DNA from: Opitutia bacterium
GTDB taxonomy: Bacteria; Verrucomicrobiota; Verrucomicrobiia; Opitutales; T3Sed10-336
Direction: 5' to 3'
NCBI GenBank assembly: GCA_050506795.1
Contig: JBJHCF010000030.1
Coordinates: 6,145-65,736 of the forward strand
Length of the DNA stretch: 59,592 nucleotides
Part shown: piece after piece, positions 168 through 20,992 of the stretch
How the letters are laid out: the number at the start of each line of letters is the position of its first letter
Numbering within the stretch: the stretch's first letter is position 1
Program-made: the position numbers and the translations under genes
Notes under the pieces: model-generated
The model's database searches: none
Told to the model about the DNA's origin: nothing
What the model saw: only the letters and a program-made list of their open reading frames with translations

Positions 168-284
168 ATGCAAAACCGGGGGGCGCCGCTTCTGGGCCGC
201 TGGCGTAACTGGTATTACTTCACCGCGGCCTCACTTGTATTCTACATCATAGCGCTGTCCCTTTTCAGTCGCTGGTTCTCATGA
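168..284 (+). CDS. Small single-TM membrane peptide (38 aa) coupled to the SSS transporter
   Basis: Manual translation MQNRGAPLLGRWRNWYYFTAASLVFYIIALSLFSRWFS*. Its TGA overlaps the ATG at 281 (ATGA). Below the ORF-track cutoff. Confidence 0.7.
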   Translation: MQNRGAPLLGRWRNWYYFTAASLVFYIIALSLFSRWFS

Positions 285-1999
285 CTGGGCTTGATTATGT
301 GGTCATGCTGGCGACGTTGCTGGGAATCGCCGCCTACGGAGCCTGGACCACACGAGGCAGTCGCAATCTCGAGTCCTACCTGCACGGAAGTCACGCGCTG
401 AAATGGGGGACCATCGGCCTCTCGGTCATGGCCACCCAGGCCAGCGCCATCACGTTCCTGTCCATGCCGGGCATGGGTTACGAGAACGGCATGGGATTCG
501 TGCAGAATTATTTTGGCATGCCCCTTGCGCTGATCATCGTGTGCGCGGTTTTCCTGCCGATTTACCGCCGCCTCAAAGTCTTCACCGCCTACGAGTATCT
601 GGAGAACCGATTCGACGGGAAAACACGCCTGCTCGGAGCGCTCCTTTTTCTCCTGCAGCGCGGTCTGGCGGCGGGCATCACGCTCTACGCGCCCGCCATC
701 ATCCTTTCCCTTACCCTGGGCTGGCCGTTCGATATCACCGTGGTTGCCTGCGGGCTGGTCGTCATTACCTACACGGTGACCGGCGGCACCCGCGCGGTCA
801 GTATTACCCAACGCCATCAAATGACCGTGATCCTCATCGGCATGGGGATCGCGTTCTACATTCTGATCGCCAAACTCCCTTCCGGAGTCGGGATGCTGGA
901 GGCCACGAGGCTGGCGGGGAGTCTGGGGAAACTGGAAACGGTGAGTTTTTCCCTGGAAATCAGCGAACGCTACACCATCTGGACCGGACTGCTGGGCGGA
1001 CTGTTTCTGAGCCTGTCCTACTTCGGAGCGGACCAGTCGCAGGTGCAGCGTTACCTCGGGGGGTCTTCGCTGACGGCCAGCCGTTTCGGCCTCTTGTTCA
1101 ACGCGGTGGTCAAGATTCCGATGCAGTTCCTCGTCCTCTTTCTCGGCGCGCTCCTGTTTGTCTTTTATCTTTTCGAAAAACCTCCGGTGTTTTTCAATCA
1201 ACCCGCTTGGGAGGACGCGAGGTCCGGAGAAATGGGTTCCGCCTTCGAAGACCTGGAGCGGCGTCACGAGGCGATCTTCGAAGCCAAGCGTTCCGCCGCG
1301 CTGGCATACGCCGACGCCACGGATTCCGCTTCGCGTTTGGCGGCGGCTGAAATCCTGGCGGCGCGGCACGGAGAAATGAACGCCCTGCGGGATGAGACCC
1401 GTCAAACGCTCCTCCTGGCCGACCCCGGAGCCGAAACCAAGGATTCGGATTTCATCTTCATCACCTTTGTAGTCAACCATCTCCCCACCGGACTGATCGG
1501 GCTGCTGCTGGCAGTGGTGTTATGCGCAGCCATGTCATCCACCGCCTCCGAGCTGAACGCCCTGGCCTCGACCACCACCATCGACTTCTACCAGAAGTTC
1601 CGGCGCGGTTCCCTCTCAGAGCACCACAAGGTCCGGGTTTCCAAGATCCTGACCGTGTTTTGGGGGTCGCTGGCCATCGCGTTCGCCATATTCGCCCGCC
1701 TGGCGGAAAACCTGATCGAGGCCATCAATATCCTCGGCTCGATCTTTTACGGTGTCATTCTGGGCATATTCCTGACCGCGTTCTTCCTGAAGTTCGTGCG
1801 CGGCACTCCCATTTTTCTGGCGACATTGATCGTGCAACCGTGCGTGGTGGTCATGTATTTCACCCTCGAAATCGGGTATCTCTGGTTCAACGCGATCGGC
1901 TGCCTCGCGGTGATGGCAGTGGCGATTCTCCTGCAACTTGCTCTTCCAAACGGTGATCAACCTGAGAACCGGTCCACCACCGCCTCTTCCAAAGAATGA
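281..1999 (+). CDS. Sodium:solute symporter (SSS family)
   Basis: 572 aa polytopic protein with SSS motifs (SVMATQASAITFLS, TAYEYLENRF, GADQSQVQRYL, AAMSSTASELNALA). Confidence 0.92.
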   Translation: MTGLDYVVMLATLLGIAAYGAWTTRGSRNLESYLHGSHALKWGTIGLSVMATQASAITFLSMPGMGYENGMGFVQNYFGMPLALIIVCAVFLPIYRRLKVFTAYEYLENRFDGKTRLLGALLFLLQRGLAAGITLYAPAIILSLTLGWPFDITVVACGLVVITYTVTGGTRAVSITQRHQMTVILIGMGIAFYILIAKLPSGVGMLEATRLAGSLGKLETVSFSLEISERYTIWTGLLGGLFLSLSYFGADQSQVQRYLGGSSLTASRFGLLFNAVVKIPMQFLVLFLGALLFVFYLFEKPPVFFNQPAWEDARSGEMGSAFEDLERRHEAIFEAKRSAALAYADATDSASRLAAAEILAARHGEMNALRDETRQTLLLADPGAETKDSDFIFITFVVNHLPTGLIGLLLAVVLCAAMSSTASELNALASTTTIDFYQKFRRGSLSEHHKVRVSKILTVFWGSLAIAFAIFARLAENLIEAINILGSIFYGVILGIFLTAFFLKFVRGTPIFLATLIVQPCVVVMYFTLEIGYLWFNAIGCLAVMAVAILLQLALPNGDQPENRSTTASSKE

Positions 2000-2820
2000 G
2001 TGTTTCCGAACCAGTGATCGCTTTCGGCCAGCAACCTTGCGGTTTTTTTCCGCGTCGCTATCTCGCCGCCAAGATACGGACCGCACTTCGGCTGCGCGCC
2101 GAGATCGGCGGGCGGGTAGTCTTCTTCTACCACGACAGCGATCATGATCCGCGGGAAACCTGTACGGTACTTCGCGAGCCGAAAAGCGGAAAAACGGTGC
2201 GACTGAATTTCCTGTTCACCAACAAAATCCAAAAAAAACACTCCCCGCTTTATAGCAAACAGATCGCCCCTGACTGGAAGAATAAAACCGAACGCCAGCT
2301 CCCCAAATATCTCGCTTCCCCCGCGCTGGAAGCATTCCGGAAAGCCGACGCCGCCAATCCCGCCGATTTCTGCCTTCAGATTTACCGGGCCATGGGTTTG
2401 CTGAACGAAGTCGAAGTCGTACGGTCAAGCGACCCCGAGGTCCGCCGCCGGGCAACGCGGGTGGAGGATTGCTTTGCCGACGTGCCCTACCAGGGCGAAA
2501 TCGTCCGGGCACGCATGGAGCCCGACGGACGCCTCCGCCTCCATCGGGGCGGCGAACACTTTATCGAACTCCCTCCCGCCGAGGTCGGACCGGAGCAAAT
2601 CAGTCCGGCGCGCGATACCCGTCTGCGTTGGATGCAGTCGATCCTGCACTGCACCCACTACATCGCCGGCGCCGGCGAACAGGCTTACCTGAACACCTAT
2701 GACACCCCTGAAATTCAATTTATCAACCGGGAAGAAATCGACCGCCCCGACGAGGCCCTCACCTATGAAAACACCGAACAGGAAAATTCTTACCTTCGGA
2801 GCCCATCCGGACGACATTGA
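1996..2820 (+). CDS. Short BshC-like protein (putative cysteine-adding enzyme homolog)
   Basis: GQQ, VFFYHDSDHD and YIAGAGEQAY resemble the BshC motifs GQQ, VFW..EDHD and Y.GGPGE.AY. Lies directly upstream of bshB1 and bshA. Only 274 aa. Confidence 0.6.
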   Translation: MSVSEPVIAFGQQPCGFFPRRYLAAKIRTALRLRAEIGGRVVFFYHDSDHDPRETCTVLREPKSGKTVRLNFLFTNKIQKKHSPLYSKQIAPDWKNKTERQLPKYLASPALEAFRKADAANPADFCLQIYRAMGLLNEVEVVRSSDPEVRRRATRVEDCFADVPYQGEIVRARMEPDGRLRLHRGGEHFIELPPAEVGPEQISPARDTRLRWMQSILHCTHYIAGAGEQAYLNTYDTPEIQFINREEIDRPDEALTYENTEQENSYLRSPSGRH

Positions 2821-3478
2821 GTTCGGCTGCGCCCCGGTACTGCTGGCCGAACGCGCACGTGGGGCGGAGCTGACCCTGGTGGTCTGCTCGCAGGGGGAAG
2901 CGGGCACCCGGGGAACTCCGGAGATTCGCCGGCGGGAGGCGGAAGCGGCGGCCGAACTGATGGAAGCCAGGCTTCGGTTTCTGGACCTTGACGGTGACGC
3001 CCGCCTGGCGCGAACCCCGGAAAATGCCCGCGTACTGGCCGCGGTGATACGCGAGGAAAAGCCGGCCGTCCTTTTCGCTCCGACTCCCACCGAAAATCAA
3101 CATCCCGATCATGCGGCCCTCGGAGCCATGGCGCGCGATGCCGCCCGGCTGGCGCGTTACGGAGGACTGGCGGACCTCCATAACCAGCCTCCACATGCAA
3201 TCGATCAGCTGTTTTTCTATTCGGTCACCAACAACGACCCTTTTCCCGCTGCCGGCGCGTTCCGATACGATGTCAGCGAACAACGCGAACTCTGGCGGCG
3301 GATCATGGAATGCCACGCCTCCCAGCTCGGCGGCAATCGGCGTTACATAGAGCTTCAGGAAACCCGCGCCCGTCTGCTCGGACTTGAGTCGGGGTGCGAG
3401 GCCGCGGTGCAACTCTACGCCAACGACCCGCTGCGGGTGAGCTCTCTGGAGCCGTTCCTGTCGGCCAGGCTTTTCTAA
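2765..3478 (+). CDS. bshB1: PIG-L family deacetylase, BshB1-like (GlcNAc-malate deacetylase)
   Basis: GAHPDDIEFGC, GEAGTRGTPEIRRREA and HPDH motifs, adjacent to bshA. ATG at 2765 chosen; it overlaps the upstream gene. Confidence 0.8.
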   Translation: MKTPNRKILTFGAHPDDIEFGCAPVLLAERARGAELTLVVCSQGEAGTRGTPEIRRREAEAAAELMEARLRFLDLDGDARLARTPENARVLAAVIREEKPAVLFAPTPTENQHPDHAALGAMARDAARLARYGGLADLHNQPPHAIDQLFFYSVTNNDPFPAAGAFRYDVSEQRELWRRIMECHASQLGGNRRYIELQETRARLLGLESGCEAAVQLYANDPLRVSSLEPFLSARLF

Positions 3479-3495
3479 CCGACCTCTTAATCATT

Positions 3496-4641
3496 GTGTC
3501 ATCTATTTCCAAATACAAGATCGCCATCACCTGTTATCCCACCGTGGGCGGGAGCGGGATCCTCGCGTCGGCTCTGGGTCACGACCTGGCCCGACGCGGC
3601 CATGAGGTCCACTTCATAAGTTACGAAAGTCCGTTCCGCCTGAACACGGACGACCCGAAAATTTTTTTTCATCCGGTGCGGGTGAACAGTTACAGCCTCT
3701 TCAAATACCCGGACTACACACTTCCCCTTTCGGTCAAGATGGCTGAGGTCGTGCAATCGTTTAACGTTCGTGTGCTGCATGTGCACTACGCCGTTCCGCA
3801 CGCCACCGCGGCGATCCTGGCACGCGCCATGTTGCCGCCTGAGATCCAGCCGGTCGTGGTCACCACCCTGCACGGCACCGACACCAACCTGATGGGCCGG
3901 GATCCCGCCTACCGTCCAGCCATCGGCCACGCACTTCGTCGAAGCGATGCCCTTACCGCCGTATCCAGCAGCTTGCGGCAACAGACTTTGGACACATTCG
4001 GCGAATGCGGAAATATCGAAGTCATACCCAATTTCTACGTCCCGGGAACCATCACCCGAGACCGAAAGTCGGTGCGCGCCGAACTGGGGGTTGAGGACGG
4101 CGAGTTCCTGCTGCTGCACATGTCGAACCTTCGTCCGGTAAAGCGCATCGATCTCCTGCTGCAGGCTTTCGCAGCCGCCAGACACCGGAACCGCATGCGG
4201 CTCGTCTTCCTTGCGGGCGACACCTTCGAAACCCACCGGGCCAAAGCGACGGAACTCGGCATACTCGACCGGATCATCGTGCGGGAAGATGTCCTGAACG
4301 TGGAGAACTACCTGGATGCGGCCGATGTCGGAGTCTACTCTTCCGAATCGGAAAGTTTTGGCCTCGGTATCCTGGAAACCATGGCTTGGGGCAAGCCGGT
4401 GGCCGCATTCGCCGTCGGCGGCATACCCGAAGTGGTGGAACACGGTAAATCGGGTTTTCTGCATCCCTTTGGCGACTGCCAGGCTCTGGCCTCGTCGCTG
4501 GACCGGCTTTACGAACACCCGGACGAGCGCGACCGAATGGGGGCCGCAGCGGCGCAAAGGGCTTGGGAGCAATTTTCCGCGGACGCCGTTACCCCGCTTT
4601 ACATCAAGCTCTACGAACGCATGCTCGAAGGTCGCGCCTGA
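3496..4641 (+). CDS. bshA: N-acetyl-alpha-D-glucosaminyl L-malate synthase (GT4)
   Basis: KIAITCYPTVGGSG, LHVHYAVPHA, TTLHGTD, HMSNLRPVKR and ESFGL signatures. GTG start at 3496 inferred. Confidence 0.9.
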   Translation: MSSISKYKIAITCYPTVGGSGILASALGHDLARRGHEVHFISYESPFRLNTDDPKIFFHPVRVNSYSLFKYPDYTLPLSVKMAEVVQSFNVRVLHVHYAVPHATAAILARAMLPPEIQPVVVTTLHGTDTNLMGRDPAYRPAIGHALRRSDALTAVSSSLRQQTLDTFGECGNIEVIPNFYVPGTITRDRKSVRAELGVEDGEFLLLHMSNLRPVKRIDLLLQAFAAARHRNRMRLVFLAGDTFETHRAKATELGILDRIIVREDVLNVENYLDAADVGVYSSESESFGLGILETMAWGKPVAAFAVGGIPEVVEHGKSGFLHPFGDCQALASSLDRLYEHPDERDRMGAAAAQRAWEQFSADAVTPLYIKLYERMLEGRA

Positions 4642-17843: not shown

Positions 17844-19292
17844 CTAAAGTTTGTCCAGCTCCGTGCGCAGGAGTTGATCGACCACCTGGGGGTTGGCTTT
17901 TCCCCGGGTCGCTTTCATCACCTGGCCTTTGAGGAAGTTGATGGCGTTCTCTTTCCCTGCCTTGTAATCCTCCACCGACTTGGGATTGGCGGCGATAACT
18001 TCGTTGCAGATCCCGGTCAGCTCTCCGGTGTCACTGGACTGCTTCAAGCCCTTCTTTTCGACGATCTCCTCCGGGCGATCGCCGCTCTTGAACATGTCGA
18101 TAAACACGTCCTTGGCGATGTTGTTGGAAATGACCCCTTCCTTGACCAGCTTGACCAGTCCGGCAATGTGCTCCGGACGCAACTTACTGTCGTCGATCGC
18201 CATTCCGGCGGCGGAAAGGTCGCGCAGCAGATCGTTGGCGATCCAGTTGGCCACCGCCTTGGGTTCCCCGCATTGCTTGACCGCTTCCTCGAAGAAATTG
18301 GACAACTTGAGATCGGGCACCAGCACGGAGGTCACCGTGTAAGGCAGATCGAAATCGTCGAAATAACGCCTCTGGCGCTCGAAGGGAAGCTCGGGAACGG
18401 TGGCGCGAATCCTCTGCAGCCAGTCCTGGTCCACCCGCACCGGCATCAGGTCGGGATCCGGAAAATAACGATAGTCGTGCGCCATTTCCTTGGTGCGCAT
18501 CGGCGTGGCCGCGCCCGCGTCGGCGTCCCAGCGGCGCGTCTCCTGGATGACCTGCCCGCCCGATTGCACCACTTTGATCTGGCGCTTGATTTCGAAATCG
18601 ATCCCGTTGCGCACGCCGGAAATACTGTTGAGGTTCTTCAACTCGACCTTCACCCCAAGCGTATCCGCACCCTTGGGACGGATACTGATGTTGGCGTCAC
18701 AGCGAAGCTGCCCCTTCTCCATGTCACAGTCGGAGATCCCCCCCTGCACCATGATCTGTCGCAACGCCGTCAAATAGGCGTAGGCCTCGTCGCCCGAATG
18801 CATGTCGGGCTCGCTGACGATTTCCATGAGCGGCGTGCCGGCGCGGTTGTAGTCGACCAGGCTGTCGTTCTCAAAGTGGTTCAGCTTGCCGACATCCTCC
18901 TCCAGATGAATTCGGGTGAGTTGGATGAATTTGTGTTCGCCCATCACATTGCGCGATGGGCCGGGGAGTTCGATTTCCAATTGCCCGCCCAGGCAGATCG
19001 GTTGGTCGTACTGGGAGATTTGGTAATTCTTCGGGCTGTCGGGATAAAAGTAGTTTTTGCGGTCCCACTTGCACACCGGCGCGATCTCGCACCCCAGCAT
19101 CAGGCCGGCCTTGATGATCTGGTCGATGGCGTGCTTGTTCATGACCGGCAGGGTTCCCGGCAAGCCGAGCACCACCGGATCGGTCAGGGTATTTGGATCC
19201 TGACCGTAACCCGCGCCCACCCGGGCGAACATTTTCGATTCCGTCTTGATCTGAACGTGAACCTCAAGGCCGATAACCGCTTCGTATTCCAT
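17844..19292 (-). CDS. gatB: Asp/Glu-tRNA amidotransferase subunit B
   Basis: IGLEVHVQ, RKNYFYPD, DYNRAGTPLMEIV and YRYFPDPDL motifs. Confidence 0.96.
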   Translation of the reverse strand: MEYEAVIGLEVHVQIKTESKMFARVGAGYGQDPNTLTDPVVLGLPGTLPVMNKHAIDQIIKAGLMLGCEIAPVCKWDRKNYFYPDSPKNYQISQYDQPICLGGQLEIELPGPSRNVMGEHKFIQLTRIHLEEDVGKLNHFENDSLVDYNRAGTPLMEIVSEPDMHSGDEAYAYLTALRQIMVQGGISDCDMEKGQLRCDANISIRPKGADTLGVKVELKNLNSISGVRNGIDFEIKRQIKVVQSGGQVIQETRRWDADAGAATPMRTKEMAHDYRYFPDPDLMPVRVDQDWLQRIRATVPELPFERQRRYFDDFDLPYTVTSVLVPDLKLSNFFEEAVKQCGEPKAVANWIANDLLRDLSAAGMAIDDSKLRPEHIAGLVKLVKEGVISNNIAKDVFIDMFKSGDRPEEIVEKKGLKQSSDTGELTGICNEVIAANPKSVEDYKAGKENAINFLKGQVMKATRGKANPQVVDQLLRTELDKL

Positions 19293-19360
19293 GGATTTCA
19301 ATAAATCAGTTTTAATGCGTGGCCATGCCACAATACGTTTATCTTGAACTGCGCGCTCGA

Positions 19361-19498
19361 TTTAACCACAAAGATCACAAGGAACACAAAAGGATCCCTG
19401 AAGTTTTCCGGCCGACTCCGCGCCCCTCCGATAATCGGAAAAAAGCAATCAATAAACTCTCCCTTTCTCTGTGTTCTTTGTGCTCTCTGTGGTTGAAA
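19361..19498. repeat. Palindromic element with 9-nt periodic arms (family B)
   Basis: AACCACAAAGATCACAAGGAACACAAA … CTCTGTGTTCTTTGTGCTCTCTGTGGTT, between gatA and gatB. Confidence 0.8.
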
Positions 19499-19525
19499 AA
19501 TCCTTATCACAGGGGAGTTGCCCTT

Positions 19526-20992
19526 TTACAGTTCCGGGTGCCGGGTGTGGTAGTCGTGCGCCTGTTCAAACCGTTGGGCAATGGCGAACAGATCCGCTTC
19601 TTGAAAGGGCTGTCCCAGAATCTGCAATCCGATGGGCAGGCCCGACTCGCTGAATCCGCAGGGTATGGAGATACCCGGGATGCCGGACAAGTTGGCGCTG
19701 ATGGTGAAAATATCGCTCAGGTACATCTGGAGCGGATCGTCGGTCTTTTCTCCCTTGCGGAAGGCCGGCGACGGCGTGGTCGGGGTCAGCAGCGCATCGA
19801 CCTTCTCATACGCCTGCAGGAAATCCCGGCGGATGAGCGTGCGCACCTTCTGAGCCTTCAGATAATAGGCGTCGTAGTAGCCGCTGCTCAGCACATAGGT
19901 GCCCAGGATCACTCGGCGCTTCACTTCCGGGCCGAATCCTTCCGCCCGGCTTTTGAAGTAAAGGTCGATGGCGTCGGTTGCCTCGGCGCTGCGGTGCGAG
20001 TAGCGCACGCCGTCGTAGCGGGCGAGATTGGACGAGGCCTCGGCGGTGGCGATAATGTAGTACACCCCCACCGCGTGCTCGGTGTGCGGGAGAGAGACAT
20101 CGACTATTTCGCAACCTTCGCCGCGGTAAAACTCGATCGCGGCCTCGATGGCGCGGGCCACTTCCGGGTCCAGGCCCTCGCCGAAATACTCTTTGGGAAT
20201 GCCGAGCTTCCAGGGGCCTTTGCGGCTGTTGAGCTCCTGACGGTAATCGGGAATATCCGTTTTGTAGGAGCTGGAGTCACGGTCGTCGTGTCCGGCCACT
20301 GCCTGCAAGAGAATCGCCGCGTCCTCCACCGTGTGCGCGAAGGGGCCGATCTGGTCGAGCGACGACGCAAAGGCCACCAGGCCATAGCGTGAAACCAGGC
20401 CGTAGGTGGGTTTCATGCCGACCACTCCGCAGAGCGCGGCGGGCTGACGAATGGACCCTCCAGTGTCGCTGCCGAGACTGATCGGCGCCTCGCCGGCCGC
20501 GACGCAGGCGGCGCTGCCGCCGCTGCTGCCGCCGGGAATACAATCGGTGTTCCAGGGATTGGACGTGGTCTTGACCGAGGAATTCTCGGTGGAGGAACCC
20601 ATCGCAAATTCGTCCATGTTGAGCCGTCCCCAAGGCACGGCTCCGGCGGCCTTCAGCCGGGCGATAGCGGTCGCGTCGTAGGGCGAAACAAACTTCCCCA
20701 ACATCCGGCTGGCGCAGGTCAAGGGCTGACCTTCCACCGCCAGGACGTCCTTGATGCCGACCGGAATGCCATCCAGCGGGCCAAAAGCTTTCCCTTCGGC
20801 GCGGCGACGGTCGGAAGCCCGCGCCCGTTCGAGGGCGTCTCCCTCATCAAAGGAAATGAAGGCGCTGACTTTGTCATCCACCGCGCGGGTGCGCTCGATT
20901 ACAGAACGAACGATTTCCTCGGAGGAAACCTCCTTCGACTCCAGGGCGCGGCTCAGTTCGGCGGCGGTACGATAATACAGGGATTCTGCCAT
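19526..20992 (-). CDS. gatA: Asp/Glu-tRNA amidotransferase subunit A
   Basis: Amidase signature PGGSSGGSAA…GSDTGGSIRQPA, plus SSNLARYDG. Confidence 0.96.
   Translation of the reverse strand: MAESLYYRTAAELSRALESKEVSSEEIVRSVIERTRAVDDKVSAFISFDEGDALERARASDRRRAEGKAFGPLDGIPVGIKDVLAVEGQPLTCASRMLGKFVSPYDATAIARLKAAGAVPWGRLNMDEFAMGSSTENSSVKTTSNPWNTDCIPGGSSGGSAACVAAGEAPISLGSDTGGSIRQPAALCGVVGMKPTYGLVSRYGLVAFASSLDQIGPFAHTVEDAAILLQAVAGHDDRDSSSYKTDIPDYRQELNSRKGPWKLGIPKEYFGEGLDPEVARAIEAAIEFYRGEGCEIVDVSLPHTEHAVGVYYIIATAEASSNLARYDGVRYSHRSAEATDAIDLYFKSRAEGFGPEVKRRVILGTYVLSSGYYDAYYLKAQKVRTLIRRDFLQAYEKVDALLTPTTPSPAFRKGEKTDDPLQMYLSDIFTISANLSGIPGISIPCGFSESGLPIGLQILGQPFQEADLFAIAQRFEQAHDYHTRHPEL

Follow-up and report, generated by a model that had tools for sequence, protein, structure and literature searches.

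Which protein could add cysteine in a bacillithiol-type pathway when a genome encodes BshA and a BshB-like deacetylase and no BshC is found in it? The question is raised by a 59,592-nucleotide (nt) stretch of DNA from an Opitutia bacterium (hereafter the window, meaning that whole stretch; coordinates are window positions unless a contig or locus is named). At 1996-4641, the list of open reading frames (ORFs) and their translations gives three same-direction, closely packed genes:

1996..2820, + strand: X274, a protein of 274 amino acids (aa), half the size of BshC and almost certainly its remote homolog; proposed cysteine-adding enzyme, on the basis of fold, profile and context
2765..3478, + strand: BshB-like PIG-L/LmbE deacetylase (ORF open from 2699; PF02585, TIGR04001)
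3496..4641, + strand: BshA, N-acetyl-alpha-D-glucosaminyl L-malate synthase (ORF open from 3394; TIGR03999)

An earlier reading of the letters alone (the sequence-only reading) had described a tight packing of a 274-aa unknown, a BshB1-like deacetylase and BshA. The ORFs lie where it placed them, and the family matches agree. BshA reached 388.8 bits with TIGR03999, an equivalog model with a cut-off of 273.7, and covered model positions 2-374 of 375. The PIG-L domain of the deacetylase scored 87.5 bits with PF02585 (cut-off 28.2). Considering the DNA together with the positions at which the hidden Markov model (HMM) matches begin, residue 29 for the deacetylase and residue 42 for BshA, the likely starts are the ATG at 2765, which falls in the non-conserved tail of X274, and the GTG at 3496, 17 nt past the stop of the BshB-like gene.

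X274 and its relationship to BshC

X274 gave no match to Pfam or NCBIfam at E ≤ 1, except for a chance-level DUF6619 row (E 0.3). It belongs to a well populated family, with relatives at E ≤ 0.001 in more than 6,505 clusters (90% identity). Family members have a uniform length of about 257 aa and no Pfam domain and, where a name is given, it is "hypothetical protein" of Verrucomicrobiota, Opitutaceae, Lacunisphaera or Opitutus. In the family alignments, the conserved core of X274 spans residues ~5-257, the final ~16 residues are not conserved, and 83 columns are invariant in 27 sequences of 59-67% identity. In a profile search of 1.84 billion representatives clustered at 50%, only 259 family representatives were found at E ≤ 0.001, mostly fragments, which indicates that the family is narrow in sequence space. 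Diverged full-length members, with 29-42% identity, are P0125, P0127, P0128, P0130 and P0169. The family also has conserved residues of its own: C126 and H221 are invariant, and C219, H46 and H50 are conserved in at least 90% of the sequences.

A search for longer forms of X274 found nine single-member clusters in which it is joined to symporter, PIG-L or GT4 domains; among these are P0391, P0392, P0393 and P0396, where the partner is PIG-L (495 and 501 aa), the symporter or the GT4 BshA. As every such cluster has a single member, on a single contig, the fusions may be genuine or may stem from gene calls with a frameshift or read-through, and we treat them as weak hints.

The sequence-only reading had proposed that X274 is a BshC-like protein and had named structural and profile comparison with BshC as the way to check it. 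The AlphaFold2 model of X274, computed with the family alignment as input, was confident (predicted local distance difference test 91.1, predicted template modelling score 0.88). The Foldseek search of this model against the PDB placed 4WBD, the BshC of Bacillus subtilis (YllA), first with E 9.5e-9, followed by a class I lysyl-tRNA synthetase (LysRS) with E ~8e-4. By VIA-align, the model superposed on 4WBD with Z 20.4 and a root-mean-square deviation of 3.2 Å, 252 of its 274 residues being placed on BshC residues 80-525, at a sequence identity of only 16%. 4WBD ranked first by VIA-align both among the 998 best Foldseek chains and among 48,161 representative PDB chains. The runner-up was the class I LysRS 1IRX (Z 15.2-15.3, 226 residues aligned), and all the other chains remained at or below 9.0.

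Profile comparison led to the same protein. The BshC profile was seeded with the canonical BshC of locus L002 (TIGR03998, 347 bits), the sole relative within the phylum having one, and its alignment consisted of 26 of the 120 homologs listed, picked for spread and for named entries. A less diverse alignment of the X274 family was matched to it by hhalign with a probability of 79.9% and E 1.4e-5. With 33 members, including the diverged ones, the probability was 95.1% and the E value 3.4e-8 over 218 columns, with X274 residues 5-234 on BshC residues 85-360 (BshC residues follow the numbering of P0326).

The same alignment bears on the three motifs that had been read from the translation as BshC-like and in the right order, GQQ (residues 11-13), VFFYHDSDHD (42-51) and YIAGAGEQAY (222-231): all of them stand on invariant columns of BshC and are in register. 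Residues G11-Q12-Q13 of X274 are paired with G91-Q92-Q93 of BshC, K26 with K106, F44 with W130, D49-H50-D51 with D135-H136-D137, and E54 with E140; further on, S203 is paired with S329, R209 with R335, Q214 with Q339, G225 with G351, E228 with E354, and Y231 with Y357. Thus, the two proteins share the core motifs GQQ, K, [FW]x4DHDxxE, S, R, Q and AGxGExxY, and every core invariant of BshC meets an identical residue in X274, except W130, which is replaced by F. The language-model features of the ESM Atlas point to BshC as well, the PF10079 BshC clusters coming directly after X274's own (0.91 and 0.90) and PF10079 being common to all ten best matches that carry any family.

What X274 lacks is equally well delimited. 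The sequence-only reading had described BshC as having a Rossmann core and a coiled coil in about 540 aa; this holds for the 4WBD chain (540-541 residues) and for BshC proteins carrying PF10079 and PF24850. BshC proteins measure 520-570 aa, against the 274 aa of X274 and the ~257 aa of its family. By hhalign and structural alignment, X274 begins at BshC residue ~80-85, the first ~84 residues of BshC being absent; by hhalign, it also lacks ~35 residues around BshC 247-285. It ends ~40 residues past the last shared motif, without the ~180-residue C-terminal region that includes the coiled coil through which BshC dimerises. The PF24850 coiled-coil domain is absent from X274, and no match to it was found genome-wide at E ≤ 1.

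On this evidence X274 is almost certainly a homolog of BshC, and it is best described as a minimal, previously unrecognised subfamily of the BshC lineage. It differs from BshC in its family-specific invariant Cys and His residues, in the translational coupling of its gene to a symporter gene, and in lying below the detection limit of the curated HMMs.

Two further systems with a related fold were compared with X274. The catalytic domain of class I LysRS (1IRX) has the same HUP/Rossmann nucleotide-binding architecture; its identity to X274 is 12%, X274 has no anticodon-binding domain, and the context of X274 is thiol synthesis and not translation. The modelled fold of X274 is that of adenylate-forming class I synthetases, yet the HIGH and KMSKS signatures are absent from its translation and from the family consensus, with GQQPCG, after strand 1, in the place of HIGH. 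Since 1IRX stands far above other class I synthetases, the comparison hints that the BshC lineage may be closest to class I LysRS. MshC of mycothiol synthesis (3C8Z) is instead a generic fold match only (Z 7.8) and is a paralog of cysteinyl-tRNA synthetase, which X274 is not. The likeness lies in an analogous pathway logic, made up of a GT4 glycosyltransferase, a PIG-L deacetylase and a cysteine-adding enzyme with a class I synthetase fold. MshC uses ATP and cysteine via a cysteinyl-adenylate.

X274 pairs with BshA and occupies the BshC slot of the operon

The distribution of X274 was evaluated in two genome samples, made of relatives that are not independent; for this reason, no statistics are attached to the counts. 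In the phylum sample (201 genomes), BshA was above cut-off in 11 genomes, namely the 10 that encode X274 and G070, the only genome of this sample with a canonical BshC. In the order sample (301 genomes), X274 was present in 39 genomes and BshA (E ≤ 1e-70) in 37, all of them among the 39; 36 of these BshA matches were above cut-off and one was cut by a contig end. The two genomes with X274 only are 83% and 50% complete. Canonical BshC was above cut-off in none of the 301 genomes, and the lone match at E ≤ 0.001 had 18.9 bits and internal stops. In genomes G321 and G285, X274 and BshA are on separate contigs, so their co-occurrence is more than adjacency. These results show that X274 strictly pairs with BshA in genomes without canonical BshC, as the sequence-only reading had anticipated when it suggested surveying co-occurrence with bshA and absence of full-length bshC. 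As PMC5790435 describes, bshC itself was found because genomes with bshA and bshB also have it, at times at the same locus; X274 displays both types of association, in 37 of 37 BshA genomes of the order sample and at 63 of the 64 loci described below.

A scan of one genome per species detected at least 559 stretches encoding a relative of X274, of which the best 80 loci were kept. These 80 are mostly from Opitutales or Verrucomicrobiota metagenome-assembled genomes (MAGs), and the nearest relative among them, with 90% identity, is in L022, an Opitutia MAG, which fits the earlier guess that the DNA came from a verrucomicrobium. Some loci with the same synteny and 59-64% identity are labelled as Rokubacteria, Methylomirabilota, cyanobacterial or other MAGs, which could reflect mis-binning or gene transfer.

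Gene order is as regular as co-occurrence. The succession symporter, X274, BshB-like deacetylase and BshA was found in nine of nine related genomes. BshA lies downstream of X274 on the same strand in 63 of the 64 loci with at least 2 kb of downstream sequence, the exception being L066, and a BshB-like gene is downstream in 54 of the 64; the expected linkage to bshA and bshB is thus borne out. Of the 68 loci with at least 1.8 kb of upstream sequence, 65 have a symporter gene immediately before X274 in the same orientation. In G070, the order is methyltransferase, BshC, BshB1 and BshA, that is, BshC stands in the place of X274 and the arrangement is otherwise the same. In the operon, X274 therefore takes the position of BshC, ahead of bshB and bshA.

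The G070 methyltransferase whose gene adjoins that of BshC was used as a query for a candidate N-methyl-bacillithiol methyltransferase in the genome studied here; only generic matches of 33 bits were found, and the candidate was rejected.

In nine of the ten loci with no adjacent BshB-like gene (L031, L049, L050, L070, L090, L093, L095, L097 and L100), X274 is followed by BshA; several of these nine are labelled as Rokubacteria or Methylomirabilota MAGs. A different arrangement is found in L104, where a homolog with 42% identity and a BshB1-like gene (155 bits) are transcribed towards each other. There, the homolog follows a GNAT acetyltransferase gene, and the pair is inserted between gatA and gatB (L104:5207-7313); no BshA was found within 12.6 kb of it. 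The GNAT protein is reminiscent of MshD from mycothiol synthesis, and its role might be N-acetylation of the product. In the window, gatB and gatA are at 17844-20992 on the − strand, ~13 kb from the operon, and the likeness to L104 is probably a coincidence.

Genes upstream of X274

The operon is longer than three genes, as it also includes a coupled symporter gene, a small membrane ORF and a DUF2911 gene. The first two are annotated in the window:

180..284, + strand: remaining 3' portion of a small ORF for a single-pass membrane protein, the stop of which overlaps the symporter start; 5' portion broken off
281..1999, + strand: sodium:solute symporter (SSF family), 572 aa; PF00474 138.9 bits, TIGR00813 210.5 bits

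The symporter gene is translationally coupled to X274: in the ATGA at 1996-1999, its stop overlaps the ATG of X274. The nearest solved relatives of the symporter are SiaT (5nv9), SMCT1, NIS and SMVT. Those with carboxylate substrates are the sialic acid transporter SiaT, SMCT1 and SMVT, with NIS also near. From these relatives, and from the amidase found in other genomes (see below), our guess is that it takes up either a precursor with a carboxylate group or GlcN(Ac)-malate (glucosaminyl- or N-acetylglucosaminyl-malate) that is being recovered.

The small ORF may encode an accessory subunit of the symporter. It is ~45-57 aa long and single-pass, and the consensus resembles GVPGFRTWRGVYLFV...LFSR.FA. 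In 46 of 85 related loci, a homologous peptide directly adjoins the start of the symporter; an intact 57-aa copy is at L022:5116-5289, and the L019 copy ends at 4298. The window copy is interrupted in its 5' part by a 10-N scaffold gap (own contig C30:6134-6144) and by a fragment at 1-178, which corresponds to the N-terminal part of a trigger factor (PF05697, 58 bits). The alignment with L022 reads straight through, with both gap and fragment absent; as L022 is a 90%-identical relative, gap and fragment look like a scaffolding or assembly artefact.

Just upstream on the same contig, at C30:5180-6049, there is the DUF2911 gene (186.5 bits). Of the 45 related loci with at least 4.9 kb of upstream sequence, 40 have it there in the same orientation, and in 38 of these 40 the interval between it and the symporter gene is 2.5-4.1 kb. 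The DUF2911 protein has a signal-peptide-like N-terminus, and its L019 copy is at 597-1481; directly upstream of it, at L019:2-472, is an MsrB gene (SelR, 160.8 bits), which fits an oxidative-stress theme. The content of the interval was inspected in L019, where it holds an 838-aa protein (L019:1640-4156). The N-terminus of this protein resembles a signal peptide, its N-terminal part contains a PIG-L domain, and among families it is matched best by Mca, the mycothiol conjugate amidase, and by MshB; it may be the exported amidase of a recovery route. With the L019 protein as query, no such protein was found in the genome studied here, and L022 also lacks it.

The proposed pathway and the alternatives

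These data are compatible with a three-step pathway. BshA would convert UDP-N-acetylglucosamine (UDP-GlcNAc) and L-malate to GlcNAc-malate, the BshB-like deacetylase would convert this to GlcN-malate, and X274 would use cysteine to acylate the free amine of GlcN-malate, whereby bacillithiol or a close derivative would arise. X274 retains the Rossmann-like catalytic core, of the class I aminoacyl-tRNA synthetase type, together with its conserved residues. We consider it probable that X274 performs the BshC step and that the product is bacillithiol or a close derivative of it. Cysteine as the substrate, GlcN-malate as the acceptor, the form in which cysteine is activated and the role of the symporter are what we infer. 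The genome is 97.8% complete, and no match to the BshC models was found in it: the best TIGR03998 match, located elsewhere in the genome, has E 0.34, and PF10079 gives none at E ≤ 10. No glutathione synthetase was found in it at E ≤ 0.001, nor was another thiol pathway seen.

Several observations weigh against this assignment. At the sequence level, TIGR03998 and PF10079 do not match X274 at E ≤ 1, so that no curated BshC cut-off is reached. Both phmmer and the X274-family profile returned only chance rows from the PDB sequences (E 0.4-1.5), hmmsearch missing 4WBD, and the best 150 of the 259 profile matches mentioned above are X274 members or fragments, none of BshC length. X274 is also without the near-invariant residues R53, N64 and L80 of the BshC N-terminus and the invariants P498, Q503, E504, R505 and H535 of its C-terminus, and hhalign found no match between the X274 tail and the C-terminal region of BshC (probability 0.2%). 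If these residues are catalytic, X274 would be unable to do the chemistry of BshC alone. The deacetylase has TIGR04001 (BshB1) as its best NCBIfam match, with 122 bits under an equivalog cut-off of 182.5, for which reason we call it BshB-like, and a BshB-like neighbour is missing in 10 of 64 loci. Among possible bacillithiol-dependent redox partners, the best YpdA/Bdr match in the genome is under cut-off (55.5 against 339.9 bits), and neither YtxJ/BrxC nor BrxA/B (PF06491) was found with the models tried. Finally, passages in PMC5790435 state that the reaction of BshC has never been reconstituted and that its activated cysteine donor is not known; thus, to say that X274 works like BshC is to rely on an enzyme of unresolved chemistry. 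In the literature from 2019 on, no reconstitution of BshC turned up, only work on glutamate-cysteine ligase.

Much of the above could also be explained if X274 were a BshC-type ligase that loads GlcN-malate, or some other amino sugar, with a group different from cysteine, yielding another small molecule that may or may not be a thiol. The 16% identity, the missing terminal regions with their invariants, the Cys/His set specific to the family (C126 and H221; C219, H46 and H50), the lack of Bdr and Brx partners, the score of the deacetylase under the BshB1 cut-off and the dedicated symporter coupled to X274 are all in favor of such a ligase. However, BshA is above an equivalog-level cut-off, the residues that X274 shares with BshC are precisely the core invariants of the latter, and among BshA genomes X274 is exactly complementary to canonical BshC, a distribution expected if the same step has been replaced. 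We therefore regard a non-cysteine ligase as unlikely. Still less probable, in our opinion, is that X274 is not the third biosynthetic enzyme at all, and that it acts in uptake or recovery with the symporter, by activating or re-charging what is imported, or as a nucleotide-binding regulator, while the cysteine step takes place elsewhere. The overlap between the X274 start and the symporter stop would fit this, as would the symporter found upstream in 65 of 68 loci, the interval between DUF2911 and symporter genes in 38 of the 45 loci with room for it, and the Mca-like 838-aa protein seen in L019, which resembles a recovery module. Nevertheless, such a role is compatible with synthesis, since re-ligating cysteine onto imported GlcN-malate is the reaction of BshC; moreover, the genome studied here and L022 are without the exported amidase and yet keep X274, and the former yielded no further BshC candidate. 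That X274 is what is left of a degraded bshC, or an ORF arisen by chance and without function, as its half length and the absence of a curated family match might suggest, is ruled out by its conservation and we give this practically no credit: relatives fill more than 6,505 clusters (90% identity) and at least 559 stretches in species genomes, with a uniform length of ~257 aa, 83 invariant columns and a confident fold prediction.

An enzyme for the BshC step remains the reading of X274 that we prefer. A bolder version of it would hold that the thiol of the Opitutales-type operon differs from plain bacillithiol, that X274, having lost the domains which canonical BshC seems to require and acquired invariant Cys/His residues of its own, is a self-sufficient ligase working in vitro, and that the symporter and the Mca-like amidase form a recovery loop returning the sugar-malate backbone to the cell. 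We find this combination doubtful; if true, X274 would reveal the long-missing chemistry of the BshC step.

As far as the text of PMC6282198 goes, Verrucomicrobia are a major lineage without a documented or predicted low-molecular-weight thiol. Published surveys, as described in parts of PMC6282198 and PMC12719100, require BshC orthologs to be of similar length, and with this requirement the X274 family would be missed. Our literature search on bacillithiol in Verrucomicrobia or Opitutales, and on short or BshC-like forms, returned no account of the X274 pathway; the supplements of the two surveys were outside that search and could list partial pathways.

If X274 does perform the BshC step, this naturally halved enzyme, in which the core invariants are retained, would show which parts of BshC are dispensable, and it would offer a smaller target for biochemistry and crystallography. 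A new family model for X274 would re-annotate thousands of genes. With 559 or more matching stretches, the operon leads us to predict a thiol of the bacillithiol type in many Opitutales; for Verrucomicrobia, X274 suggests a redox thiol pathway that has so far gone unrecognised.

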